From the NCBI GenBank assembly GCA_965205975.1, contig OZ242195.1, positions 5,495,253-5,559,252 on the forward strand: 64,000 bases of DNA, read 5' to 3'. This DNA comes from Candidatus Latescibacterota bacterium. GTDB lineage: Bacteria > Latescibacterota > UBA2968. The stretch's first letter is position 1. Every line of letters begins with the position of its first letter. The notes below the pieces were generated by a model that did no database searches, was not told the origin of the DNA, and was given only the letters and a program-made list of their open reading frames with translations. Positions 10,222 through 15,244 of this stretch are shown here, one piece after another. The translations under genes and the position numbers were made by a program.

Positions 10222-11316
10222 TTATTCGATTAAGGCTTCGGAGATGGCGTCGTGGAATTCGGGGCGGAGATGGGCAATTTGGTTGTTTTCGCGGGTGGGG
10301 TGTACGCGGTTGGTGAGGAGGATGACGCCGAGGTCTCGTATGGGGTCTCCCCATACGGATGTGCCGGTGAATCCGAGGATGCCAAAGGATTTGTCGCTAA
10401 AGTAACGGCCGCTCGAACTTGCGCCGGGTGAGACTGTGTCCCAGCCGAGTGCCCAGGTGCTGTTGGGCGCGAGGTTGGCGCAGGTGGTGAATTGTGGAAT
10501 GCTCCGTTTGGGAAAGCTGCCTGCGCCGAGCCATGCGAGCAGGCATTTCGATAGGTCCTGCGCTGTGGAAAACAGACCGGCGTGGGGGGCGATACCACCC
10601 ATTGCGGCGGTGTTCTCATCGTGGACTTCACCGTGGACGAGGTGGTCGCGCAAGTCGGAGCCGTTTTCAGTGGGCGCAATGCGGTGTTTGAGATGGGGCG
10701 GTGGACAGTACAATGTGTCGTTCATTTTGAGCGGTTCGAATATGTGCTGTTTGACGAGGTGATCCAGACGGTGGCCGCCGATGGTTTCGAGGACTTTACC
10801 CAGGGTGAGAAAGCCCAGGTCGCTGTACACGGTGTCTGCGCCGGGTTCATAAGTTAAGGGGTGTTGGCACGCCGCGTTGAGCATGGCATCGCGGATGTCA
10901 ATATCGTGCGTTTTGCGTTGGTTTTCGTATAGGTGAACATGTGCGGGCAGGCCGCTGCAATGGGCGAGTAGGTGCCGGACTGTGACGCGATTTTTGTTCT
11001 TGCCGGTGAAGGAGGGTACATAATATTGCACGGGTGCGTCGAGGTCCAGACGATCTCGATCGACAAATAACATGCAGAGCGTTGTGGTGGCGATGACTTT
11101 GGTGACGGAAGCGAGGTCGTAGAGGGTGTTGATTTGCACGGGTGTGGCGTTGGGTTGATAGGTATGGTGGCCCACAGCCCAGCAGGTGACGATGCCCGCA
11201 CGGCGCAGGACGAGACCGACAGCACCGGGGGTGGTGCGGGTATGCACATGGTGTTGTAATACTTGACGGGCGCGGTCGAGTTTTTGAGAATCAAAACCGA
11301 GTTGTTCGGGTGTCAT
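10222..11316 (-). CDS. Serine hydrolase, beta-lactamase class C-like family
   Basis: YDLASVTK (SxxK), LLAHCSGL, YSDLGF, GEVHDEN, HAGLFS, GFTGTS, LLTNRVHP. Confidence 0.9.
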   Translation of the reverse strand: MTPEQLGFDSQKLDRARQVLQHHVHTRTTPGAVGLVLRRAGIVTCWAVGHHTYQPNATPVQINTLYDLASVTKVIATTTLCMLFVDRDRLDLDAPVQYYVPSFTGKNKNRVTVRHLLAHCSGLPAHVHLYENQRKTHDIDIRDAMLNAACQHPLTYEPGADTVYSDLGFLTLGKVLETIGGHRLDHLVKQHIFEPLKMNDTLYCPPPHLKHRIAPTENGSDLRDHLVHGEVHDENTAAMGGIAPHAGLFSTAQDLSKCLLAWLGAGSFPKRSIPQFTTCANLAPNSTWALGWDTVSPGASSSGRYFSDKSFGILGFTGTSVWGDPIRDLGVILLTNRVHPTRENNQIAHLRPEFHDAISEALIE

Positions 11317-11443: not shown

Positions 11444-11472
11444 TTGCACGTAGCATTTCTGTGTTCTATATT
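11444..11472 (+). promoter_or_regulatory. Candidate sigma-70 promoter for the CutA-fusion genes
   Basis: TTGCAC-17 bp-TATATT, about 50 bp upstream of ATG 11524. Confidence 0.5.
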
Positions 11473-11523: not shown

Positions 11524-12171
11524 ATGAGATATCGACATATCTTTGGAGTAGGCGCATTTATCGCTTTGTTTTTTGCGATGTGTATGCCCGCTGAGGGACA
11601 GGTGAATGTGGAACGGCTCGAGAGCATTGCGCGACATGTGGCGCGGGCGGTTTTAGCTGAGGGGGATTCTCTGACGGCAGAGCAGGTTGCATGGGTCGAG
11701 CGCATGACCGCGCAATTGGCGGAGGATGCAGCATTTCTCGACGAACAAAAACAGCGGTTGGAAGAGATGCGCATGGAAAGAGATGCGTCGATTCGGAATA
11801 TCGCGAGTCAGATTGCCAAAGGGATCGGTGTTCTGATTGCTCTGCTGGTTTTGTGGGCGATTTTTCGTGTCTTTAGAAGGGGGTTGCGTGCCGAGTCGGG
11901 AGATGATCCTCTTGGGGTGTTGATTGCGATGCGCACAGAAGCGCGGGCGCAGAAACTCGGCGAGGTGCTTGTTGAAGAAAATTTGGCGACGGGGGGAACT
12001 GTTGCGCCGAGTATCCGTTCAATCTATCGCCGGGAGGATGGGGTGCGAGAAGCTGCGGAGGCGATGGTTTTTTTGAAGACGACGCGTGCACAATTAAGCA
12101 ATTTGATGGACCGAGCAGAGGAATTGGGTGGGGGCAAGACGCCAGAACTCGTTGTGATACGCGAGGTGTGA
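11524..12171 (+). CDS. Membrane protein: signal peptide, helical ectodomain, TM helix, degenerate CutA-like domain
   Basis: C-terminal AQKLGEVLVEENLA..SIY..E..FLKTT..TPELVVI matches the CutA pattern; TM GIGVLIALLVLWAIF followed by RR; GAAAGG upstream. Confidence 0.7.
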   Translation: MRYRHIFGVGAFIALFFAMCMPAEGQVNVERLESIARHVARAVLAEGDSLTAEQVAWVERMTAQLAEDAAFLDEQKQRLEEMRMERDASIRNIASQIAKGIGVLIALLVLWAIFRVFRRGLRAESGDDPLGVLIAMRTEARAQKLGEVLVEENLATGGTVAPSIRSIYRREDGVREAAEAMVFLKTTRAQLSNLMDRAEELGGGKTPELVVIREV

Positions 12172-12175
12172 GAGT

Positions 12176-12204
12176 ATAGGGGCGGTGCCCCAGTGCCCGC
12201 CCGT
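12176..12204 (+). repeat. REP copy (ATAG variant)
   Basis: ATAGGGGCGGTGCCCCAGTGCCCGCCCGT differs at two positions from the reverse complement of 20258-20286. Confidence 0.75.
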
Positions 12205-12221
12205 GAAAGGATACCCATAGT

Positions 12222-12899
12222 ATGTTAAGAGTATGGACCGTCATTCTGTTAGGGTTTTGTTTTGCTGTGTCCTCAGGCGCTGAGGAAGAGGATGCTTCGC
12301 GTATTGCGCGGGAGATGATTCGCTCTCTGTATGGCTCTGAGCGCGTGAAGCCGTTGCCACCCGTGGCGAATGCACAGGTGCGCGTTATTGCGAGAAGGTT
12401 GGTTGCGGAGTCAGACGAGCGTTTTCAGCACGCGTTTTTTCAGGCGGGGGATCGGGAGCAGGGCGCGTTTTTCAGCGGGCTAATGAAGCATATTGCTATC
12501 GGGGTGATGATTTGTCTGGTGTTTTTTGTGGTGCATACGGTTGTGCGAAAGCTCGATGCGGCGCGGCGTCTGGGGAAAACAGATCGCGATGTCGCAGTTC
12601 AAGGTGGGTTGCGAAATGCGCCTTGTATTCTGGCTCTTCCCATGCCATCTGAGGCGGAGGCAAGTCGCGTTGGGCACGCGCTTGTTGCCGAGCGATTGGC
12701 CGCGCGTGTGGATGTTTTTTCGCAGTATTTTTTGTCGCCGGATCGGGATGGAGGTACTGTGCTGTTTGTGATGACTGTAAAAGGCCGCTTGAGATCACTG
12801 AAAAAACGGTTGGGGAATGTGTCTATCTCATTTCCCGTGTCGCACGGTCACAGGTCCTATTTGACGTGGATTGCCGACGCGGCTGATGGGAGAGGGTGA
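12222..12899 (+). CDS. Membrane protein: signal peptide, helical ectodomain, TM helix, degenerate CutA-like domain
   Basis: EAEASRVGHALVAERLAA.V and the terminal FPVSHGHRSYLTWI match CutA; TM IAIGVMICLVFFVVHTVV followed by RK. Confidence 0.7.
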   Translation: MLRVWTVILLGFCFAVSSGAEEEDASRIAREMIRSLYGSERVKPLPPVANAQVRVIARRLVAESDERFQHAFFQAGDREQGAFFSGLMKHIAIGVMICLVFFVVHTVVRKLDAARRLGKTDRDVAVQGGLRNAPCILALPMPSEAEASRVGHALVAERLAARVDVFSQYFLSPDRDGGTVLFVMTVKGRLRSLKKRLGNVSISFPVSHGHRSYLTWIADAADGRG

Positions 12900-12950
12900 A
12901 AGGCGAAAGGTATCCGCAGATGGACGCAGATGGACGCAGATGAGAGGATG
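12893..12950 (+). repeat. Heptamer pair plus 10-bp tandem repeat (CGCAGATGGA)x3
   Basis: GGTGAAA GGCGAAA then TATCCGCAGATGGACGCAGATGGACGCAGATG. Confidence 0.75.
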
Positions 12951-12982: not shown

Positions 12983-13405
12983 TTGATCATGCGTGTATTC
13001 AGATATGTTCTCTTATTTTTTCTGGCAATAGTTATAATTATTCGATTTGAAACCTGGTTAGATACTTTTTTGCCTACCGAAATTAGCGACCTGTTCTCGA
13101 TATTTCTTGTAGTTGCTGTTATTTCTATATTTTGGGGTCGAAAAAATAAATTTCAACGTTGGTTTGACGATTTATTGCATCGCGTCAATAAAACGCGCGG
13201 TCCTCTTTTCCGAAAATTGCGTGTTGTGACCACTGTCATAGGCCATATTGTTATTCTGGGATATTTGGCTCCCTGGTATTTGCCTGTCTTATTTGGAAGT
13301 ACGACGCCGGGAAATTATACGGGTAAGGCTGGGATATATAGGGCTTTATGGCTGGGGTTTCGGACAATCTCAGGTGTTTGGGCTTGTATAAGTTTGAAAA
13401 TTTGA
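12983..13405 (+). CDS. Hypothetical AT-rich membrane protein
   Basis: 140-aa ORF with 3-4 hydrophobic segments; visibly lower GC than its neighbours. Confidence 0.5.
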   Translation: MIMRVFRYVLLFFLAIVIIIRFETWLDTFLPTEISDLFSIFLVVAVISIFWGRKNKFQRWFDDLLHRVNKTRGPLFRKLRVVTTVIGHIVILGYLAPWYLPVLFGSTTPGNYTGKAGIYRALWLGFRTISGVWACISLKI

Positions 13406-13439
13406 TATTTTAAAAAAGAAAACGGTCTGGCACTCTTCT

Positions 13440-13865
13440 ATGCGAATTATCTTGGATACCAATGTGCTTGTTTCTGCACTGCGATCAGACTTGGGGGCTT
13501 CATATAAGATTATATCTCAATTGCCTTCCGAGAATTTTCAGATCGCTCTGACGGTACCTTTGTATTTGGAGTATCAAGATGTTCTTACACGTCCAGAAAA
13601 CATGACTGGTGCGAGTAACCGAAATGACATTCTCAACTTTCTTCGTTATCTGTGCAGCATTGCACATCAACAAAAAGTGTTCTTTCTATGGCGTCCCAGG
13701 CTTGACGATCCAGAAGATGATATGGTGTTAGAAGCAGCTATAGCTTCTCAAAGTCTTTATATTGTCACTCACAATCTCCGTCATTTTTCTGACCGTGGTA
13801 TTGAGGAACAATTCGGTATTACGCCTGTCAGCCCTCGGACCTTTCTACATCTTATTGAGGATTAA
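13440..13865 (+). CDS. PIN-domain toxin (VapC-like)
   Basis: IILDTNVLVSAL, LYLEY, DDPEDDMVLEAA, IVTHNLRHF. Confidence 0.9.
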   Translation: MRIILDTNVLVSALRSDLGASYKIISQLPSENFQIALTVPLYLEYQDVLTRPENMTGASNRNDILNFLRYLCSIAHQQKVFFLWRPRLDDPEDDMVLEAAIASQSLYIVTHNLRHFSDRGIEEQFGITPVSPRTFLHLIED

Positions 13866-13870
13866 GAACG

Positions 13871-14107
13871 ATGGGTGCATTCACTATTCACTTGCCAAAT
13901 TCACTGCATGACAAAATCGAAGAACTGGCCAAAGCAGAAGGTTTATCGGTCAATCAGTTTATGGTGACCGCTGCTGCTGAAAAGATAGCTGCATTACTTC
14001 CAGAGGACTATCTAACTCAAGAGGCGAAACAAGGCAAACGTGCGGATTTTGAAAAAGTCTTAAAGGCCGTTCCCCACATTGAACCAGAAGAACACGACCG
14101 GCTCTGA
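13871..14107 (+). CDS. Ribbon-helix-helix (HicB-like) antitoxin
   Basis: FTIHLPNSLH..IEELAKAEGLSVNQF..AAAEKI; 5 bp downstream of the PIN gene. Confidence 0.85.
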   Translation: MGAFTIHLPNSLHDKIEELAKAEGLSVNQFMVTAAAEKIAALLPEDYLTQEAKQGKRADFEKVLKAVPHIEPEEHDRL

Positions 14108-14332
14108 ATATATGCCATCTTTCTGACTTGAACCATCCGTCCCTGTCTGGATCAGCATGGGCAAAATTCTTCTGTCGGAGCGGTGTACAACTTTAACAGA
14201 AGTTCACCATTATTTAGGATACCCCCCCCCACCTCCTGAGCCTCGTTGTTCTATCTATCCTCTCATCCTCACCCATCCTGTAATATCTCTGCTTGTCCTA
14301 AAACTTTTCAATGTTCATAAAGTGGGAAATCT

Positions 14333-15244
14333 ATGTACATTCCAGAAACCTTATCGTCTAACCCAAAATGGGCTGAATGGATCGAACAGTTGCCAGATAT
14401 CGTCGCTGCGTGTGCAAAGCGGTGGGATCTTCGCATTGAAGATCCTATGACAGAAGATTATGCCGAGATGTCCTATAGCTATATCGCACCGGCGACGGAT
14501 GCGAAGGGGACAGAGGTTGTTCTGAAAATTGGCTCGCCTCAGCAACTGGCGGAAATTTGGCAACAAGAGTGCCACGCGCTGCAACTTTGCAATGGTGATG
14601 GTACGGTTAAGTTGCTCGATTTTGACGAGGCGTTGGGCGTGCTGATGCTCGAGCGCATCCGTCCAGGTGTTCCTCTTGGTGTTTGCCCGGATGACGAGAA
14701 GAATACGCGCATTGCCGCTCGGCTGATGAAAAAGTTCTGGCGACCCGTTCCGAAAGTTCACAGTTTTCGACCGACGGCTTATGAGATAGATGGCTTTGAT
14801 AAGTTGCGCAAAAAATACAATGGCGGCACCGGACCGTTGCCCGAAAAATGGGTTGTGCGCGCCGAAACACTTTACGATGAGTTGATGAGTACCAGTACAG
14901 AAACGGTTGTTTTGCACGGCGATTTGCATCACTGGAATATCTTGAGTGCTGAGCGCGAACCCTATCTCGTTATTGATCCCAAAGGTTATTTTGGCGATCC
15001 GGGTTACGAGGTCGGTGCTTTTTTGGCGAATTATCCCGATGCTTCCTGTGATGGATGTGACCGGGGTGAAATTGATGTTCGCCGCGTGGAGATTATGGCG
15101 AAAGAATTGGATATTCCGTGCGAGCGAATTATCAAATGGGGTCTGGTTTTGGCTCTAATTTGGGCGAGATGGAGTGCGGATACGCCCGAAGAATTTTGGC
15201 GTACAAGTATTAATCGCGCCCAGACGTTGGATCAGTTGCTTTAG
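14333..15244 (+). CDS. Aminoglycoside/hydroxyurea kinase family (APH(6)-like) phosphotransferase
   Basis: VVLKI, LMLERI.PG, LHGDLHHWNIL, IDPKG. Confidence 0.85.
   Translation: MYIPETLSSNPKWAEWIEQLPDIVAACAKRWDLRIEDPMTEDYAEMSYSYIAPATDAKGTEVVLKIGSPQQLAEIWQQECHALQLCNGDGTVKLLDFDEALGVLMLERIRPGVPLGVCPDDEKNTRIAARLMKKFWRPVPKVHSFRPTAYEIDGFDKLRKKYNGGTGPLPEKWVVRAETLYDELMSTSTETVVLHGDLHHWNILSAEREPYLVIDPKGYFGDPGYEVGAFLANYPDASCDGCDRGEIDVRRVEIMAKELDIPCERIIKWGLVLALIWARWSADTPEEFWRTSINRAQTLDQLL

Follow-up and report, generated by a model that had tools for sequence, protein, structure and literature searches.

Two adjacent genes from a bacterium of the Latescibacterota encode membrane-anchored members of the CutA family that have lost opposite faces of the CutA trimer interface. 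The best overall explanation, to which we give a probability of roughly 0.5, is that the two proteins form an anchored, face-complementary heteromer with a remodelled cleft. The genes (Table 1) lie in a window of 64,000 nucleotides, the whole stretch of DNA analysed; an original prediction, made from the letters of the window, had read them as a heterotrimeric transmembrane receptor or scaffold.

Table 1. Features of the anchored CutA pair and its upstream neighborhood in the window
Feature	Position	Strand	Basis
Divergent beta-lactamase-family (serine hydrolase) gene, marker of the cutA locus across the order	10222..11316	-	Pfam PF00144
Candidate sigma-70-type promoter, TTGCAC-N17-TATATT	11444..11472	+	Read by eye; putative function
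Gene 1, membrane-anchored CutA copy 1 (face-A copy), 215 aa	11524..12171	+	ORF
Gene 1 signal-peptide-like segment, residues 1-25	11524..11598	+	Hydrophobic peak 5-23
Gene 1 helical ectodomain, residues 26-91	11599..11796	+	Low-confidence model helices
Gene 1 membrane helix, residues 92-121, homologous to FliF TM2	11797..11886	+	Profile-profile comparison
Gene 1 CutA domain	11917..12159	+	Pfam; alignment to E. coli CutA
Gene 2, membrane-anchored CutA copy 2 (face-B copy), 225 aa	12222..12899	+	ORF
Gene 2 signal-peptide-like segment, residues 1-20	12222..12281	+	Hydrophobic peak 1-19; presumed cleavage
Gene 2 membrane helix, residues 90-108, far diverged from FliF TM2	12489..12545	+	Hydropathy scan
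Gene 2 CutA domain	12630..12878	+	Pfam; alignments

Two membrane-anchored CutA genes

Canonical CutA is a small soluble protein made of three identical subunits, whereas those encoded here, of 215 and 225 residues, carry membrane helices. The predicted order of parts (signal-peptide-like stretch, ectodomain, membrane helix, basic residues, CutA domain) holds for both genes: a hydropathy scan finds two hydrophobic peaks in each protein (residues 5-23 and 96-114 in protein 1, 1-19 and 90-108 in protein 2), the 15 residues past the second peak include 4 lysines or arginines in protein 1 and 6 in protein 2, and both C-terminal domains exceed the Pfam CutA1 (PF03091) cut-off of 22.4 bits, with 48.2 bits in protein 1 (residues 132-212) and 23.3 bits in protein 2 (137-219). 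The best Foldseek and VIA-align matches of the AlphaFold models of both proteins are CutA structures, with pLDDT mostly 60-90 in the CutA domains and lower in the hairpin and the final residues. Against the NCBIfam CutA equivalogs NF007930 and NF041095, protein 1 scores 31.1/145 and 28.3/120 bits, far below the cut-offs, and protein 2 has no match to either. The pair belongs to the CutA Pfam family, but falls outside canonical CutA.

A pattern of small residues ahead of residue 26 is common to gene 1 homologs. The predicted topology, like that of FliF TM2, has the N-terminus outside and the CutA domain in the cytoplasm, with presumed cleavage of the signal peptide. The ectodomain, about 60 residues of low-confidence helix in the models, was said to contain a recurring xRxIAxxxA helix, but it does not in fact repeat: the two proteins have just the first ectodomain helix in common, and the second instance of the motif marks the start of the FliF-like membrane segment in protein 1 while aligning with ectodomain helix 2 in protein 2. 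As for the promoter claimed for the pair, both hexamers are present, and recur together in 16 of 21 genus genomes (19 have the -10 hexamer; all are close kin), but they match the consensus weakly and a consensus scan did not list the site.

The alignments also bear out what had been read of the two CutA domains. Protein 1 aligns without gaps to residues 14-94 of E. coli CutA and stops ahead of the last helix, keeping S48, Y50, E61, K67, T68, P89, and E90 but not C39, W52, H84, or Y86 (E. coli numbers here are taken from this gap-free alignment and extended along the profile). Protein 2 keeps the last helix, with A37, A38, T68, G99, Y103, and W106, and has two deletions, one shortening the hairpin and one removing the HxY-PE segment; C39, W52, and the HxY motif are thus missing from both. 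Scored over nine canonical cleft and interface residues (C39, Y50, W52, E61, H84, Y86, E90, Y103, and W106), protein 1 retains three (Y50, E61, and E90) and protein 2 retains two (Y103 and W106), a further Tyr placed at position 50 lying in an unreliable gapped stretch; neither chain carries the full canonical set.

Complementary loss along the trimer interface

The published description of the Shewanella CutA1 interface assigns Y45, W47, Y81, strand 2b, and strand 4 to the side of subunit A, and Y98, W101, strand 2a, and strand 5 to the side of subunit B (Sato et al., PMC3004244). Adding 5 converts these to the E. coli positions Y50, W52, and Y86 on one side and Y103 and W106 on the other, all of them conserved columns among 104 canonical CutA sequences; the start of the last CutA helix is likewise described as contacting the neighboring subunit (PMC6823277). 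We call the Y50/W52/Y86 side face A and the C39/Y103/W106 side face B, and scored 9 conserved positions of face A and 8 of face B, in ranges that were drawn after the pattern had been seen, only the five aromatics and the strand pairs being taken from PMC3004244.

Copy 1 proteins score 5-9 on face A and 0-3 on face B; copy 2 proteins score 0-4 on face A and 2-8 on face B. All 29 copy 1 proteins score higher on face A than on face B, and all 29 copy 2 proteins the other way round, although these 29 pairs represent six genera and one duplication; the 104 canonical CutAs show a mean face difference of 0.05 (range -0.33 to 0.62). The complementary degeneration originally predicted from two proteins is therefore found in every pair, and runs along the published trimer interface.

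Since each copy retains one contact face, each is probably functional only as part of the pair, and the single surviving interface, joining face A of copy 1 to face B of copy 2, points to an obligate heteromer, most simply 1:1. The predicted heterotrimer accordingly survives in part: a heteromer is likely, but closing a trimer takes two faces on each of its chains and only one of its three interfaces, the copy 1-to-copy 2 contact, keeps both, so that a closed heterotrimer is unsupported and the sequence pattern argues against a homotrimer with three clefts. Between a 1:1 unit and a trimer with one intact interface, we lean modestly toward the former. Two qualifications apply: i) the surviving interface is weakened in this genus because copy 1 has lost two of the three face-A aromatics; and ii) in genomes G080, G081, and G082, copy 1 retains W106 and copy 2 retains E61 and H84, which would allow trimers.

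A different arrangement occurs in G077, a member of a third family, where one anchored protein (L094:4819-6482) contains two CutA domains and is followed by a second anchored CutA. The three domains have face A only, both faces, and a bias to face B, and could form an ordered three-domain chain, although a trimer would fit equally well. G077 also has a broken cutA-like sequence elsewhere (L124).

A probable composite cleft and its remodelling

In all four of G024, G080, G081, and G082, copy 1 has Y50, W52, H84, and Y86, and copy 2 has C39, G99, Y103, and W106, so that one complete cleft could be rebuilt between the copies; this composite cleft of the less-derived genera probably still binds a CutA-type ligand. 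Copy 1 of the genus under study and of two sister genera (g4 and g9) ends ahead of the last helix and lacks W52, H84, and Y86, and copy 2 of g1, g4, and g9 has Arg at position 39 and Asp at position 41 in 25 of 25 proteins (the Arg replacing C39 is residue 162 of protein 2). E61 is present in 29 of 29 copy 1 proteins and position 90 is Glu or Asp in 29 of 29, while E59 is Ala in protein 1 of this genus. CutA is PII-like, and is described as binding pteridines and, through a cited His2Cys site, copper; the same account finds E59, E61, and E90 necessary for full rescue of copper stress by E. coli CutA (PMC12685090). Given the replacement of E59 and the loss of both Cys and His, canonical copper or pterin binding appears unlikely in this genus. 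Our guess is that the copy 2 Arg, opposite the copy 1 glutamates, may fill the acidic pocket.

The pair at the cutA locus

The two genes belong together across the genus, as the prediction of a module presupposed: both are present in 21 of 21 genomes and adjacent in 20, with 4-174 bases between them, a length that varies through insertions such as the element at 12180-12205. In the remaining genome, G011, they are unlinked and lie 3.4 Mb apart (C1:230879 and C1:3670091), with both frames open. A six-frame search of the one-contig genome under study (98% complete) found no canonical cutA elsewhere, and none of the 21 genus genomes has one. In a set of 53 genomes from the order, the pair is carried by 29 (six genera) and a single soluble cutA by 24 (five genera); among the matches listed, no genome has both, and all 29 genomes with one copy type also have the other.

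The beta-lactamase-family gene adjoins the pair at 14 of 15 genus loci examined and 8 of 8 other pair loci, and adjoins the soluble cutA at 2 of 2 loci of the same family and 16 of 16 loci of the sister family. The copies of G024 sit on two contigs, each at a contig end, and their neighbors match both flanks of the soluble gene of G021. The pair thus occupies the ancestral cutA locus, replacing the soluble gene across the order; the beta-lactamase-family gene itself is a neighbor and at most a candidate part of the system. In a quick tree of 105 columns the two copy types form branches of their own (support 89 and 88), as a single old duplication would predict; the soluble forms of the order may be ancestral or reverted. 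The third family carries single anchored CutAs (G078 and G079) at loci other than that of the pair, and the G077 genes described above lie at another locus.

The pair is under purifying selection within the genus: dN/dS (pooled pairwise values among kin, hence not independent) is 0.19-0.26 in gene 1 outside the signal peptide, and 0.23-0.28 in the ectodomain, membrane helix, and CutA domain of gene 2, rising to 0.67 in the linker. In sponge metatranscriptomes, contigs of related strains cover parts of gene 2 in 4 of 4 libraries and long parts of gene 1 in 2 of 4; among the pieces listed, none bridges both genes with enough sequence, and such contigs cannot reveal strand, level, or co-transcription.

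Several features of the neighborhood are recorded here in their own right. The element at 12180-12205 is GC-rich, with 16 copies in the genome at no more than 2 mismatches. A short tandem-repeat element lies right behind gene 2 (12906-12947) and draws many contigs in the RNA libraries; a 30-base part of it has 26 genome copies at no more than 2 mismatches. The genes downstream (12986-15244) encode a small membrane protein, a PIN-domain and ribbon-helix-helix pair resembling a toxin-antitoxin module (13440-14107), and an APH-family kinase; they vary within the genus, an alpha-2-macroglobulin-family gene standing in their place at 9 of 15 loci examined. In several other genera, the beta-lactamase-family gene is separated from cutA by a Mut7-C RNase-domain gene (L033:799-1275, L038, L039, L088, and L097), and cupin and ROK genes follow downstream; no such Mut7-C gene was found in the genome under study.

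A membrane anchor homologous to FliF

Profile-profile comparison matches the copy 1 anchor to FliF, the flagellar MS-ring protein, with a probability of 98.8 and an E value of 9.6e-17 over 51 columns that span the pre-membrane helix and TM2. An exhaustive profile search with copy 1 also matched two FliF fragments through the membrane segment, and among 7999 candidates scored, all 18 homologs of the copy 1 profile with at least 497 residues are FliF. Counted over a window of 30 residues, the gene 1 helix is identical to FliFs of the order at 14-16 positions, and copy 1 helices match the FliF consensus at 20-27 positions in 8 flagellated pair genomes and at 13-19 in this genus. The proteins P0045-P0048 combine a CutA domain close to that of this genus with a helix that is FliF-like at 25-27 of 30 positions. 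The gene 2 helix matches FliFs at only 2-5 of 30 positions, compared with 12-20 for copy 2 of G024, G080, G081, and G082; the N-terminal profile of copy 2 nonetheless finds copy 1 in the genome (E 0.006). The homology is confined to the 51 columns, neither protein having a FliF ring-building domain or FliG-binding tail by Pfam or NCBIfam. Descent of the ectodomain from the last ring-domain helix of FliF was also considered, one HMMER alignment having reached that far, but was rejected when profile comparison gave no support; a genome-wide search with sub-profiles found no further paralog of the ectodomain or membrane helix in this genome.

Copy 1 and the FliF of the same genome, G080, share 27 of 30 residues but only 8 of 27 codons. 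Recent gene conversion from fliF was rejected on this ground: codon matches within genomes (8/20, 12/26, 8/24, 8/27, 11/23, 6/14, and 9/20) do not exceed the level between genomes, and the likeness to FliF is therefore maintained by selection on the protein rather than by recent copying. Comparing flagellated genera, identity in the copy 1 helix (0.44-0.78) mostly exceeds that in the CutA domain (0.29-0.58), whereas in the comparison of this genus with G023 the CutA domain is the better conserved of the two (0.55-0.59, against 0.35-0.44 in the helix). No FliF turned up in the 21 genus genomes, and the 4 of them tested for FlhA, FliG, and flagellin showed none of these either, whereas G087 has all four. 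Constraint on the helix was probably relaxed after the genus lost its flagellum, a contrast that amounts to a single event. A test for acceleration specific to the helix was significant at p<0.05 for just 5 of the 32 triplets, the genus being faster in both regions; a per-site contrast gave p values of 0.0007-0.21 in five chosen triplets. The flagellated G077 and G078 also have diverged helices (12-15/30), the FliG and flagellins of G078 ruling it out as a second flagellum loss, and the flagellated genera g2 and g3 have no anchored CutA.

FliF TM2 is itself highly conserved in the class (mean identity 0.83, versus 0.45 for TM1), so that an intrinsic constraint could act without any contact with the motor. 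The MS-ring structures described in PMC10198558 leave the FliF membrane helices, TM2 included, uninterpreted or unresolved.

Parts of FliF and FliG turn up in other settings in this class. FliG_C-domain genes number 8, 8, 10, 12, 13, and 3 in the flagellated members G087, G086, G021, G080, G079, and G078, which also have 5-9 flagellin-domain genes, while the 4 tested genomes of this genus have none of either kind. Among those of G087 (L125-L131) are several full-length FliG paralogs and a FliG_C membrane protein, as well as fusions: one links an FGE-sulfatase domain to a FliF-tail-like stretch and FliG, another an ECF sigma factor to FliG_C. Helices resembling FliF TM2 occur in proteins without CutA (L089:4939-5469, L090:4654-5295, L118:1096-1710, L132:2290-3300, and L135:4018-4806): in a FliF C-terminal half with its own signal-peptide-like start in G080, in small exported domains of G021 and G079, and in polytopic proteins of G077 (four copies in one protein) and G087 (one copy). 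Family f4 has mini-FliF genes (L092:4630-5232, L093:4316-4618, and L119:1501-2112) encoding a membrane helix, a partial PF01514 ring domain, and a TM2 that resembles the family's own FliF (20-25/30 to that of G105).

A proposed history and its alternatives

We propose that the ancestral cutA of the order gained an N-terminal anchor from the TM2-coding segment of fliF, together with a signal peptide, and would then have been duplicated in place; the homology is established, the order of events conjectural. Each copy next lost one contact face, as the sequence pattern shows, copy 1 keeping A and copy 2 keeping B. Both proteins would sit in the inner membrane with the N-terminus out and the CutA domain in the cytoplasm, and would bind through the one surviving interface to make one composite cleft rather than three. 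In the ancestor, the FliF-like helix probably served to bring the protein next to FliF or one of its partners. In this genus and two sister genera the cleft is remodelled, the invariant copy 2 Arg at the position of C39 facing the copy 1 glutamates and W52, H84, and Y86 gone; the remodelled unit may serve as a tethered docking site or scaffold, possibly with the Arg in an acidic pocket, rather than as a copper or pterin carrier or a receptor. After loss of the flagellum the constraint on the helix would have relaxed, and the pair would have kept a job independent of the flagellum.

Might the heteromer simply be the lineage's CutA, tethered to the membrane and still carrying a pterin-like molecule or a metal, with neutral complementary loss having made it dependent on two subunits? 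The one-for-one replacement of soluble cutA at the same locus speaks for this, as do the complete composite cleft of G024 and G080-G082 and the survival here of two of the three copper-rescue glutamates of PMC12685090 (E61 and E90); yet both copies in this genus lack C39, W52, H84, and Y86, E59 has become Ala, no His2Cys site of the kind cited in PMC12685090 is present in mature protein 1 or in the protein 2 cleft, and the invariant Arg suggests a new constraint, so that we consider continuity of function possible but somewhat unlikely. We find it rather improbable that the pair is a receptor, as originally predicted, whose ectodomains sense a periplasmic cue and switch a cytoplasmic CutA heterotrimer. 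The single-pass layout with a modelled continuous helix from ectodomain through membrane, an ectodomain dN/dS of 0.19-0.23 within the genus, and the PII-like nature of CutA (PMC12685090) would all suit a receptor, but the proposed periplasmic bundle is unsupported because the ectodomain, although conserved within the genus, is the least conserved region between genera (identity 0.00-0.50), and it is short or missing in P0152, P0156, P0160, P0162, G078, and G079. Nor does the ectodomain match any Pfam or NCBIfam family or ESM Atlas feature (a full-length relative likewise has no Atlas feature match, and its structure matches come from the CutA domain alone); the loci examined show no output partner and no signalling gene that regularly adjoins the pair; and two of the three interfaces of the trimer lack their conserved faces. 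We read the ectodomain as a spacer or helical contact rather than a sensor.

The remaining alternatives dispense with either the present function or the contact between the copies. Two membrane proteins that no longer touch, each homo-oligomeric or acting alone, would account for the unlinked genes of G011 and for the low identity between the copies (26% over 131 columns); but the two copy types always occur together (29 of 29 genomes), and a homo-oligomer requires both faces on a chain when each copy has lost one, which makes independence very improbable. Slightly harder still to credit is a flagellar accessory now decaying as a relic in a genus without flagella. The near-identity of the FliF-derived anchor in flagellated relatives, the wide reuse of FliF and FliG parts in the class, and the extra cleft losses in this clade are what a relic would lead one to expect, but both frames stay open throughout the 21 genus genomes and their dN/dS is well below 1, the extra cleft losses are shared with the flagellated g4 and g9 and are therefore older than loss of the flagellum, the pair is not beside flagellar genes at the loci examined, and the flagellated g2 and g3 have no pair. 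Returning to the anchored, face-complementary heteromer, a bolder version that we hold to be doubtful would make it a one-cleft tethered heterodimer addressed to the flagellar motor by a near-copy of the FliF helix, a tag also carried by several unrelated proteins of the class; in the flagellum-less genus, an arginine from the partner subunit would have closed the cleft, and the pair would have taken a new job.

Relation to known systems and significance

The pair resembles CutA/CutA1 (PF03091; E. coli 1NAQ, T. thermophilus 1NZA, Shewanella 3AHP, and Synechococcus 6GDU) in Pfam score, predicted fold, and genomic slot, but is anchored and duplicated, with one contact face per copy and with C39, W52, H84, and Y86 lost in the genus. 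FliF (PF01514 and PF08345) shares the homologous 51-column segment and, in all likelihood, its orientation in the membrane; it differs in having the ring-building domains and the FliG-binding tail, and is itself missing from the genus. CutA fusions of other kinds occur in unrelated bacteria, with TPR repeats, cobalamin adenosyltransferase, NUDIX, or thioredoxin/HEAT domains (P0185, P0288, and Atlas rows). In the proteolipid ring of the fungal V-ATPase (Vma3/Vma11), duplication and loss of opposite interfaces made both copies obligatory; there the ring stays closed and its function is unchanged, whereas here a closed trimer may have opened and its site been altered. The long form of mammalian CUTA has a hydrophobic N-terminus of its own, and we know of no FliF link or paralog pairing for mammalian CUTA. 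Its heavy form, although from one gene, offers a loose parallel for CutA action at membranes, and mammalian CUTA is reported in review to interact with the membrane region of BACE1 (PMC3891995). H. pylori FlgV, a small membrane protein modelled to contact the C-terminal membrane helix of FliF (PMC10655999), is a precedent for that helix as a binding site, but FlgV binds the helix rather than copying it, and has no CutA domain. The literature we searched, in which subscription journals are mostly outside coverage, contained no description of an anchored bacterial CutA pair or of a link between FliF and CutA.

We wish to stress that these organisms are uncultured and that any function of the pair is at this stage a proposal. 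The role of CutA, a protein found in every domain of life, is still under debate. At one locus or within one class, there is now a natural series of soluble CutA, anchored near-intact CutA, pairs with a complete cleft, and pairs with a remodelled cleft. With this series one can test directly if three sites, or a closed trimer, are indispensable to CutA, and can separate the residues that bind ligand from those that serve assembly. The pair is also a clean bacterial case of the passage from homomer to obligate heteromer through loss of opposite faces, and its anchor draws attention to FliF TM2, which is unusually conserved here. If the FliF-like helix did prove to be a motor tag, it would represent an undescribed way of targeting proteins to the flagellar motor, and would link the CutA ligand to motility.
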